From IMG/VR virus record IMGVR_UViG_2703718823_000005: 46,805 bases of DNA; one strand, given 5' to 3'. This DNA is from a virus (taxonomy: Duplodnaviria > Heunggongvirae > Uroviricota > Caudoviricetes). The position numbers were made by a program. This document shows positions 1-3,000 of the stretch, one piece after another (position 1 is the first letter of the stretch; each line of letters begins with the position of its first letter).

Positions 1-3000
1 CCAGACGGTTTAAATGAGCCGGTTACCTTCAGTCAGACTTCAGTGACCCAAGGTCTCAACCATCAAGCCGTATAGTCTCCCACCTTGGGTCTTCCTACTT
101 AAAGTTGGAGGACCTGAGTTTAGGGTGCAGTTTAAATAAGACACCAAGTTGGAGGACCTGAGTTTAGGGTGCAGTTTAAATAAGACCACAGACAGACTTA
201 GAGTCGGACAGCCGAAGGCGAACCAGTGGGCCTATAGTCAGGAGGGATTATGATTATTATCACCCTCCATAACTTCAGTCAGACTTCAGTGACCCAAGGC
301 ACAAACCATAGCTATCTATGGTCTCCCACCTTGGGTCTTCCTACTTAAAGTAAAGCTGTCTTCAGCACCTCAGCCAGTCTCTGGACTGCATGTCCTTTCC
401 CGTACAGGTCATACGTAATGGACTGACTGCTATGGCCTAAGATGCCCTGAGCATCCACCAGATTGACTCCACGCTCTTTCATGCGGGTCGCCAGCCAATG
501 CCTCAGACTGTGGAGAGAGACATCCTGAGAGTCTCCTAGGGCCTCAGTCAGGACCCTAGAGTTAAACCAGCTAGAGTATGCGCTTGGAGTCATCCCGAAG
601 AGAGGACCCTCGTCAGGCTGCATGTCTACCCATTCGAGGAAGGACTTCAGGTCAAGACCACAGGCCCCATCGGTCAACGGCACAAGTCGGACTGAATGCT
701 TGTTCTTCACAGACTTACCGTCCCCATCTTCGTTGATGTCGATACAGACCAGTCCATTGTCTAAGGTTACAATGTCACGTTTAGTCAGGTGGCAGACCTC
801 AGCAGACCGAGCGCCAGTAGCTACAGACACCAGAGACGCCCATCTACGGGCCTCAGAGGTCGTGTGAGCCGTGTGTCGTGTGAACTGATACTCAGCCTCA
901 ACACGGACCAGAAGTCTCTCCAGCTCCTCGTCTGTGAACGCTCTGCGCTTGGAGTCGATATCCTTGGTCAGCTTCATCCGTTCAATAGGGTTGCGGCCCT
1001 CAAGTTGCCCATTCATCAGACCGTAGTCAAGACACATCTTCGCCTTAGTCAGCAGCTTGTTAATCGTCGACGGTCTCACCTCAGAAGCCAGCATAGCGTC
1101 CCTGACAGCCAGCCACTCAGAGCGGGACATCAGGTCCATGTCTTCAGGTAAGAACCGAGAGACGGTATTCAGTGAGGACGACAGGTCCTTGTAGCTGGAT
1201 GACTTCAGGGTCTGGACCTTCTCAGCCAGCAGCGAGGACACTAGCTCAGAAAAACTACAGATAGCTGGTTGGTCAGCGATAGTGACCTCAGGTTGGGGCT
1301 CCTGTGTGAAAACTGCTGGTCTATCCCCCTGCTCATTCTTCAGAATTGACGTAGAGTCGCCTATAGTTGAGTAATCAGTATGGTTATTATCATCAATCAG
1401 CTTAATCAGACCAGAGGTATCACCAGTGTCTACCCTCTGCTGTGCTGCGGTCAGGACTTCAAGCGCTAACCTTATGCCCTTCTGCTGGTCCAGACTTAAG
1501 GCTTGCGTAGCGGCTAGCTCCTTCAGGTTGGACTTCTCGTCCACCAAAGTAGCGACCTCAAGTCCATTCCAGTAATCGTCACTAGCGTCTGTCAGGAACT
1601 GCTCAGCCATAGACCGGAGGTGCTCTGTAAGCTCCTGTAGCGAGACATCAGGCCTATCCAACATGAAGGACTTAGCTGTGGCTGCAAGCTCTCTCTGACG
1701 CATTGTGGCTACTCTCCTGTCTGTGCTTCGGGTCGATACTGAAAGAAACGGGATGGTCTGTCCCTTGAGTCTGAAGCGGATAGTATATCGACCATTGGCT
1801 CTACGGACTAACTGAGGCTTAGCAAGTAGCGAGCAAGCCACGCCGAGTAGGTTGATTTGTGTCAGCCTTGTGTCAGGACTTGAGGTGTAGACTTGCTGAT
1901 ACAGATAGGGAGACCCAGAGAAAGAACTGGATGGATATACAGTATTGTCATGGTTAATGTCAGTCATATCAGGACCTTAAGTAGCGTTGAGTCAACTACT
2001 TCAAGTCCGTCCATCCGTCTGACAGTGGAGTCCATCTGGAACTACGCGGGAAATACCCTCGTTAATCAGCATTCTGACATCAACAAAACGCATGAAATTC
2101 TGCAGGACGAATCGAAATGCGAAATGATTGTGGTCATCGAAAACTTTATGACCTCATCGGCAAAATATGCCGACATTCTGCTGCCAGACCTGATGACCGT
2201 TGAGCAGGAAGATATTATTCCTAACGACTACGCCGGTAACATGGGATATCTCATTTTCCTCCAGCCTGTCACCAGCGAAAAATTCGAACGCAAACCGATT
2301 TACTGGATCCTGAGTGAAGTCGCGAAACGTCTTGGACCTGACGTCTATCAAAAGTTCACTGAAGGTCGCACGCAGGAACAATGGTTACAACATCTGTACG
2401 CCAAAATGCTTGCCAAAGATCCGGCGTTACCGTCTTACGACGAACTGAAAAAAATGGGTATCTATAAGCGTAAAGATCCCAATGGTCATTTTGTCGCCTA
2501 CAAAGCATTTCGTGACGACCCCGAGGCAAATCCACTTAAAACACCTTCCGGTAAGATTGAAATTTATTCCAGCAAGCTGGCGGAAATTGCCCGTACCTGG
2601 GAACTGGAAAAAGATGAAGTGATAAGCCCACTGCCAGTTTATGCCTCTACCTTTGAAGGCTGGGACTCCCCTGAACGTAGAACCTTCCCACTGCAACTGT
2701 TTGGTTTCCATTACAAATCCCGTACTCACTCGACCTACGGCAATATTGATCTCCTGAAGGCTGCCTGCCGTCAGGAGGTGTGGATCAACCCTATAGATGC
2801 GCAGAAACGTGGGATTGCCAACGGCGATATGGTGCGGGTGTTTAACCATCGTGGCGAAGTTCGGCTACCAGCCAAAGTAACACCACGTATTCTCCCTGGA
2901 GTTAGCGCTATGGGCCAGGGAGCCTGGCACGAGGCCAATATGTCTGGCGATAAAATCGACCATGGCGGCTGTGTGAATACGCTAACCACTCTGCGCCCTT

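Follow-up and report, generated by a model that had tools for sequence, protein, structure and literature searches.

The DNA analysed here, which we call the window, is the virus record IMGVR_UViG_2703718823_000005 (Caudoviricetes) at its full length of 46,805 bp, and it comprises the entire contig LOJC01000061.1 (GCA_001606435.1). At its left end an integrase gene, int, adjoins an interrupted copy of the Escherichia coli gene ynfE. Homology to ynfE of E. coli K-12 begins at positions 2029-2033 and extends at 99.6% identity through ynfF to position 5638. Given this starting point, the ATG of int (1965-1967) lies 65 nt from an attachment (att) core at 2033-2043, and it is preceded at a distance of 7 nt by a Shine-Dalgarno sequence TAAGG (CCTTA on the window strand, 1975-1979). 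Window positions 1-2043 belong to a site-specific integrative element of 6.4-6.8 kb, of which they form the end nearest int, and ynfE is split by its insertion. The contig ends within this element and its left boundary is therefore out of view, not absent.

An earlier interpretation, based on the window sequence and referred to below as the sequence-only reading, had placed the integrase about 60 bp from the junction, close to the distance measured, and had correctly assumed that only one end of the element was visible with its cargo to the left, where sister copies carry the payload. It had also proposed that the element replaces the 5' part of ynfE, and this has to be abandoned in favour of a clean insertion with an 11-bp duplication. 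Comparison with the uninterrupted K-12 locus, which the same reading had recommended, defined the core CATCTGGAACT, an 11-bp sequence common to attL, attR and the K-12 attB that occurs once in K-12, and both cores were found in every fully bounded ynfE-type copy. Nine copies are bounded in this way (L001, L002, L006-L009, L013, L056 and L058, in our numbering), and L013 encodes an integrase identical to that of the window. Each inserts 6406-6830 bp (7743 bp where a further insertion has entered) after nucleotide 1413 of ynfE, and the missing 5' 1413 nt of the gene are retained directly beyond the far boundary of the element, truncated at codon 471 with the addition of 14 element codons. The right att arm hardly varies between copies, although identity of their int DNA is only 88-99%. 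The copies thus show the features of integrative elements in the TIGER sense, with int near one end, precise attL and attR, and uninterrupted attB sites elsewhere. The ynfE-type element was detected in 150 of 5426 complete E. coli genomes, at 80-99% identity, most of the others carrying an intact ynfE, and it is mobile in evolutionary terms. Insertion sequences have entered several element copies (IS1203, IS100, IS903B, an IS3-family member and IS66, in H3, H30, H87, H91, L013 and L065), and some copies are therefore probably inactivated.

In the RefSeq genome annotation the split ynfE appears as an N-terminally truncated pseudogene. Islands at this site have been listed by TIGER as Eco892.7.ynfE and Sfl13.8.ynfE, with ynfE as a candidate target for 'regulated gene integrity' (Mageeney et al. 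2020, PMC7192596), and they are almost certainly the same element, each being a 7-8 kb integrase island in the ynfE molybdopterin domain of E. coli or Shigella flexneri. That work gave the position and the gene disruption; the capsid gene, phage promoters and phage-end motifs considered below are undescribed there. It does raise the question of whether the main role of the element is that of a reversible ynfE switch, integration turning off a selenate-reductase subunit and excision restoring it. The site is constant, the target is inactivated at codon 471 without restoration, the copies at this one site are 80-99% identical, and uninterrupted alleles exist elsewhere, both alleles being common. 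Nevertheless, sister elements with the same payload occupy a tRNA gene or other sites, which makes ynfE a place of landing and not the point of the element. Moreover, the paralogue ynfF adjoins ynfE, no excised forms were seen, and in the window strain the ynfEFGH operon is broken twice, by the element in ynfE and by a prophage in ynfG. A switch as the main role is, accordingly, very improbable.

The integrase is intact. A Pfam search yielded a PF00589 match at amino acids 358-522 (E 6e-15), PHROG phrog_1 'integrase' matched the protein at 4e-43, and alignment to the solved structure of the XerC-like 4a8e showed the residues R387, H486, R489, H512 and Y522 to be present. Catalytic residues in a C-terminal domain and recombination at a short identical core are both characteristic of tyrosine recombinases. 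AGA and AGG account for 18 of 37 arginine codons in int and for 2 of 48 in ynfF, and the frequency of the six rare codons is 66.5 per 1000 in int compared with 21 per 1000 among its neighbours; the sequence-only reading of a 540-aa tyrosine recombinase with foreign codon usage was sound in both respects. Its suggestion of a protein search with a scan of the N-terminal region was productive for the integrase family, and the search for an N-terminal arm-binding domain gave no Pfam match within amino acids 1-237; in a sister integrase, DUF6538 was recognised by Pfam at amino acids 7-59. E. coli, Shigella, Citrobacter, Enterobacter and E. albertii contain homologues that are 93% or more identical. 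The N-terminal extension of about 50 residues is still translated, as shown by in-frame indels among copies that preserve its frame. It overlaps two TTGTGTCAG repeats and a phage-end-like sequence discussed below, so that cis-acting DNA may have shaped this part of the protein. Three further TTGTGTCAG copies lie in the other arm of the element (repeat families D6 and D9), and the presence of these repeats in both arms makes them candidate arm-type Int binding sites.

Comparison of complete copies revealed a conserved gene set consisting of int and genes for proteins of 67, 163 and 329 aa, denoted p67, p163 and p329, of which p163 is a charged coiled-coil protein. All element genes run in the direction of int, and a variable region between the conserved genes carries KilA-N, AP2, HNH or uncharacterised genes. 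Searches of Pfam, PHROGs, NCBIfam and PADLOC produced no match for p67, p163 or p329; Pfam, PHROG and NCBIfam recognise only the integrase and the variable DNA-binding or defence genes, a content which, as in satellites, excludes most virion, packaging and replication genes. This compact architecture recurs in E. coli, Shigella, Leclercia, Citrobacter, Enterobacter, Buttiauxella and Rouxiella with two types of integrase. Members of the second subfamily share the payload, p329 being 75-93% identical, and their integrase is only 30% identical to that of the ynfE type, such that the conserved payload characterises the family better than the integrase does. In Rouxiella the insertion site is the 3' end of tRNA-Gly(CCC), the repeat there measuring about 110 bp, and the second subfamily is present also in E. 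coli, Shigella, Citrobacter, Enterobacter and Buttiauxella. Both subfamilies coexist in Shigella flexneri SFBU1023, one copy (L056) in ynfE with its int split by an insertion and the other (L060) elsewhere on the chromosome. Among seven ynfE-type elements compared, p67 is 84-100% identical in six and 63% identical in UMNK88; between integrase types it falls to 55-63% while p329 stays at 75-93%. This co-variation of p67 with integrase type leads us to infer that it may act as the excision factor.

The gene for PD-T7-4 (DUF4145; E 2e-96) is often carried by the second, tRNA-type subfamily, where it overlaps the 3' end of the integrase gene (L011 6815-7474 in Rouxiella; L065 5755-6414 in E. coli 97-3250). 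The gene was recovered in a screen for T7 resistance, and the second subfamily matches the remark of Vassallo et al. that PD-T7-4 'often overlaps an integrase gene'.

A function for p329 emerged from structure prediction. With 14 close homologues AlphaFold gave a predicted local distance difference test (pLDDT) score of 36, after which remote relatives were added; an exhaustive profile search generated 64 family representatives, 34 of which were aligned for the final model (pLDDT 84.9; predicted template-modelling score, pTM, 0.79). Foldseek returned 240 PDB and 201 BFVD matches to this model at E <= 0.001, many of those to solved capsids having a probability of 1.0. The best 50 of the 240 PDB matches were all HK97-fold capsids or encapsulins, including capsids of the T7-like phages Kp9, PhiM1, HRP29 and P-SCSP1u, and the named proteins among the best 50 of the 201 BFVD matches were phage head or capsid proteins. 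On the evidence of the model, p329 is an HK97-fold major capsid protein, one for which sequence searches of Pfam, PHROGs, NCBIfam, PADLOC, PDB sequences and GenBank phages gave nothing. Some remote relatives carry C-terminal Ig-like domains, and one relative is located in the structural module of a podophage contig, where it follows internal virion proteins of the gp16-like and gp15-like kinds and is preceded by a small charged protein. By its charged composition and its position, p163 may serve as a scaffold; weak matches of p163 to T7 gp14 and DUF6971 were dismissed as the product of coiled-coil composition. The leader of p329, GGACTCACAGTATTTAAACTAATTTAGGAGATTGATT-ATG (L001 17027-17107, sense strand), is conserved in both subfamilies, and its AT-rich enhancer-plus-Shine-Dalgarno style presumably resembles that of the T7 gene 10 leader.

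Since encapsulins feature among the best fold matches (template-modelling score up to 0.48), the genes could in principle form an operon for an encapsulin-like nanocompartment on a mobile island, with p163 as cargo. No Pfam encapsulin match was found in the 34 family members, however, nor any known cargo enzyme; one p329 relative belongs to a phage virion module, and the promoters of the operon are of the phage-polymerase type. We regard a nanocompartment as highly improbable.

All payload genes lie downstream of paired promoters of the T7-group single-subunit RNA-polymerase type, one member of each pair being identical to promoters of K1F-like coliphages (Kayfunavirus). In sister copies the intergenic regions corresponding to DNA left of the window carry, exclusively on the sense strand, sequences such as the 23-mer CTAAACTATCACTATAGGGAGAC, and every complete element of either subfamily has one to four sense-strand matches, with at most one mismatch, to TCAC[TC][AT]TAG[GA][GA]. 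Exact matches are confined to the sense strand, 102 kb of control DNA contained a single exact match, and in many copies the matches are paired about 27 nt apart. The 23-mer is identical at 23 of 23 positions to the promoter preceding the capsid gene of Escherichia phage Pisces and also matches about ten other Pisces promoters. A 19-mer of the promoter was found in 22 IMG/VR contigs, 20 of them 39-40.8 kb in length and one of them phage vB_EcoP_F. The motif is present in 214 GenBank phage records at about four to five sites each, many of the phages being classified as Kayfunavirus; they include K1F, EcoDS1, CR44b, PE3-1, LM33_P1 and other T7-like phages, and in EcoDS1, CR44b and PE3-1 a motif site is annotated as 'promoter'. 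In common with T7-group promoters, the element sequence comprises a 23-bp consensus from -17 to +6 with a TCACTATAG core and a G start; its TCACTATAGGGAGA core is identical to what we take to be the T7 consensus. The sequence CTAAACTATCACTATAGGGAGA suggests a putative start site for a Kayfunavirus RNA polymerase, and in TCACTATA/GGGAGA the G is the predicted first nucleotide of the payload transcript. The second member of each pair, such as ATACCCC-TCACTATAGGGA, carries CCC at -11 to -9, which we assume to be typical of T3, and no known phage group could be linked to this second promoter class. The motif at 229-249 of the window (CCTCCTGACTATAGGCCCAC) was rejected as a phage promoter on account of two core mismatches and a lack of conservation in UMNK88.

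A 35-mer of the promoter occurs in 262 of the 5426 complete E. coli genomes, always on the chromosome and in unannotated DNA, and by this measure the family is represented in about 5% of them.

The element also carries sequences resembling the two ends of T7-like phage genomes. The hairpin at 241-268 is identical at 28 of 28 positions to sequences in Pisces, IMM-002 and others, with 36 of 37 positions in phiYIO1-1, and folds at -12 kcal/mol; the surrounding sequence at 233-271 matches 146 phage records, all T7-like. In Kayfunavirus genomes the hairpin sits between the last promoter and the last gene. Its loop is inverted between phiYIO1-1 and Pisces (L037 901-936 and L038 441-468) with the orientation of the flanks unchanged, suggesting recombination or inversion across the stem. 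Within int, positions 1877-1911 align with Pisces 186-223 at 35 identical positions in 38 columns with three gaps, the score of 20.5 exceeding a shuffle maximum of 12.5, and the Pisces segment spans the inner end of the 190-bp terminal repeat, which ends at 190. T7 carries CCCT/ATCTGTTACAG at 157-171, and its terminal repeat ends, we assume, at nucleotide 160. On the int sense strand, CCCTATCTGTAT is present in 15 of 15 elements of both subfamilies, in one copy with a single mismatch, despite the 30% identity between the integrases. The far arm of ynfE-type elements contains, in the same orientation, CTCACAGTG...GGACC, TCCCCCATAG and CCTCAAGTC, which are reminiscent of the initial 50 nt of the terminal repeats in T7 and Pisces; in a circularised element, terminus-like pieces would therefore flank attP. 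Moreover, 9-mers in non-coding element DNA are shared preferentially (z about 6-7) with both ends of the genome of Pisces. Together these motifs suggest a mimic of the T7 concatemer junction. All phage matches are shorter than 40 nt, and whole-element BLAST against phages gave none at E 1e-5.

Terminal-repeat-like sequence and T7-type promoters would be expected in the decaying remnant of a temperate T7-like prophage that had by chance kept an integrase, a capsid gene and a few promoters, and the insertion sequences in several copies could also indicate decay. Such an origin is improbable given that the same 6.4-6.8 kb set of intact open reading frames is maintained in seven genera, where it is combined with two integrases that are unrelated and occupies two target sites, p329 being 75-99% identical across those genera, and that no gene fragments for an RNA polymerase, DNA polymerase, portal or tail are present.

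An element with its own capsid gene behind T7-type phage promoters looks like a phage satellite, and we consider it probable that this one is a minimal satellite of T7-like virulent phages, induced by the polymerase of its helper. The element would remain silent in the chromosome until a T7-like virulent phage infects the cell and the phage polymerase transcribes the payload. Int, present at a low prior level or produced by read-through from circles, would together with the small factor excise the element, and its capsid protein would form small shells. The phage-end-like sequences at 241-268 and 1877-1911, with the other-arm motifs that adjoin them only across attP, would then let the helper machinery fill these shells and so permit transfer.

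Expression of int had been assigned by the sequence-only reading either to read-in from the host side or to a promoter assembled in an excised circle, on the grounds that int is transcribed away from the junction with little room for a promoter. The premise holds, there being no recognisable promoter in the 65-nt gap. Read-in is unlikely because ynfE and ynfF are oriented in the opposite direction. Assembly of a promoter in the circle is plausible: about 210 bp before the distal core, 13 of 15 elements from both subfamilies have an outward-facing sigma-70-like site, TT(C/T)TGAC(A/T)-N18-TCTAAT, its -10 element without the usual A at position 2. Since all genes are co-directional, the phage-type promoters would also read round the circle into int. 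Neither of these circle routes explains the first excision from the chromosome, which may be started by low constitutive levels of Int combined with a helper-induced excision factor. A sigma-70 scan match running from 282 to 253 was discarded as no better than chance.

Several observations weigh against a satellite. Scans with Pfam, PHROG and NCBIfam recognised no gene for a portal, a terminase or a protease and none for replication, and assembly and packaging with a heterologous capsid protein are consequently hard to picture; profile comparison detected no sequence similarity between p329 and the Kayfunavirus capsid protein, and the grounds for assigning p163 as a scaffold are its composition and position alone. 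The window itself contains neither the promoters nor the capsid gene, which only sister copies have revealed. Terminus-like motifs in the element are short and no more than partly conserved in the tRNA-type subfamily, CTCACAGTG and TCCCCCATAG being kept mainly in the ynfE-type one. The sigma-70 scan found no consensus in the 65-nt arm or in adjoining ynfE DNA on either side of the junction. Finally, a search of public metagenome and IMG/VR contigs yielded no attP junction, the predicted sequence of which is GGAGTCCATCTGGAACTTCAAGGAC, and this also counts against the promoter-in-circle proposal, and the element was not seen in virome-derived contigs. Contigs of 6.4-7.8 kb carrying p329, considered as possible free circles, turned out to be chromosomal fragments or unitigs bounded by att repeats.

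The failure to find circles or evidence of packaging would be readily understood if the element were a phage-triggered defence island, spread by other means, whose T7-type promoters express the payload on infection and whose proteins poison or decoy phage assembly. Promoters that answer to a phage enzyme would serve this purpose, and the variable region contains PD-T7-4 in one subfamily and KilA-N, HNH and AP2 genes in others. On the other hand, the conserved proteins are without a PADLOC model match, and a full HK97 capsid protein with a scaffold-like partner and copies of phage ends exceeds what interference would need. Defence as the primary role seems to us unlikely, although satellites also protect their hosts and the two readings overlap to that extent.

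The proposed satellite differs from those described earlier. P4-like satellites and classical phage-inducible chromosomal islands (PICIs) resemble it in having an integrase gene beside att, a hotspot for variable or defence genes and a dependence on helper virion parts; their helpers are temperate phages. Their characteristic genes, alpA, primase or replicase, sid, psu, delta, alpha and terS, were not detected in the element with Pfam, PHROG or NCBIfam. Capsid-forming PICIs (cf-PICIs) are likewise integrative satellites that encode their own HK97-type capsid and do not remodel that of the helper (10.1101/2022.09.08.507074). According to the description of them in that source, their head and packaging module is complete and tails are all that they take from the helper, whereas our element encodes a capsid and a scaffold-like protein alone, with no complete head and packaging module recognised by Pfam, PHROG or the structural model; its putative helper is virulent and T7-like, and induction would occur via phage-polymerase promoters. 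PICMIs (minimalist, phage-inducible islands of the chromosome), reported from Vibrionaceae, resemble it in being integrative satellites of about 6 kb with virulent helpers and, as summarised in their abstract, have no capsid-remodelling genes and package DNA in helper-type capsids (PMC10803314); the element, in contrast, encodes its own capsid, occurs in Enterobacterales and has no recognised genes in common with them. With T7, K1F and Pisces themselves it shares sequences of the T7-group class III promoters and of the concatemer junction, namely the 23 of 23 match to a Kayfunavirus promoter and, in T7 and Pisces, the boundary CCCT/ATCTGTwwCAG, but here they reside on a chromosomal integrase island without an RNA polymerase gene. 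The island in ynfE was already listed, and the biology of the element appears to be undescribed in the literature searched. It could be the first satellite of T7-like virulent coliphages, a chromosomal element of 6.5 kb, silent until the helper polymerase arrives, with two tandem promoter classes that respond to several helper lineages, a miniature HK97 capsid of its own and a T7 concatemer-junction mimic that is contiguous only across attP, a proposal which, taken as a whole, we advance tentatively and place just short of probable.

The features of the window that belong to the element and its target are collected in Table 1. The hairpin module next to int folds at -30.4 kcal/mol (z -5.8), none of 200 shuffles folding equally well, and it is conserved in L001 and L002. 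The second module is 88-97% identical to it and folds at -23.9 kcal/mol (z -3.6). The contig ends 23 nt beyond this second copy, indicating that the assembly broke at the repeat, and the duplicated 82-nt module was probably the cause. The 44-bp tandem repeats, seen also at L001 20011-20142, lie downstream of int and matched none of the phage records; they contain CCCTAAACT, which occurs also in the K1F-type promoter in its upstream half, the promoter core being absent. Rfam detected no RNA family in the element.

Table 1. Features of the integrative element and of ynfE at the left end of the window. A slash marks the terminal-repeat boundary; strand cells are empty for features given without a strand.
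Feature	Position	Strand	Remarks
Contig-end sequence	1-23		Not aligned to L001, L002 or L013; matches no other examined copy
Second 82-nt hairpin module	24-105		Variant adjoining int in strain CEA224S; direct repeats D1/D4
Two 44-bp tandem repeats	102-189		One copy in UMNK88, two in the window, three in CEA224S
28-nt hairpin	241-268		GGAGGG-N16-CCCTCC; in Kayfunavirus genomes, about 450 bp from the right end
Hairpin module	270-351	-	Directly after the int stop codon; long stem-loop at 291-337
int	345-1967	-	540-aa tyrosine recombinase; about 50 extra N-terminal residues
Two TTGTGTCAG repeats	1857-1876		Within int codons; candidate arm-type Int sites
Copy of terminal-repeat inner boundary	1877-1911	-	TCCCT/ATCTGTATCAG ... 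CACCTCAAGTC on the sense strand; int codons 19-31
Right att arm	1968-2032		Shine-Dalgarno CCTTA 1975-1979; palindrome TTGAGTCAA 1987-1995; CTTCAAGTCC 1999-2008
att core CATCTGGAACT	2033-2043		11-bp direct repeat at both element ends
ynfE 3' part	2044-3059	+	99.6% identical to K-12; cut off from promoter and first 471 codons

The remainder of the window, from 5639 to 46805, is a Stx-type short-tailed prophage inserted about 85 nt into ynfG and unrelated to the ynfE element; K-12 homology stops at 5638, where it starts. Over the 19 kb tested (5639-25000) it is 97.7% identical to Shigella phage POCJ13 and 99.2% identical to 75/02 Stx. An open reading frame on the minus strand at 10562-18982 encodes a 2806-aa protein of the LPD5/MuF type, and matches at the Rfam gathering score comprise two sRNA-Xcc1 copies and STnc100, at 5949-6033, 6484-6569 (+) and 46203-46416 (-).

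For genome annotation, these results mean that the ynfE pseudogenes of such strains are simple, potentially reversible insertions. T7-like phages are the textbook virulent phages and common candidates for therapy, and no enterobacterial satellite of them has been described in the literature searched. If the satellite interpretation is correct, the use of the helper polymerase as the induction signal would represent a new and very simple sensing mechanism, and the location of the T7-resistance gene PD-T7-4 would be accounted for. The interpretation would also predict interference with K1F-like therapeutic phages in about 1 in 20 E. coli strains, and the element would provide a tiny, self-contained capsid-plus-integrase system for engineering.

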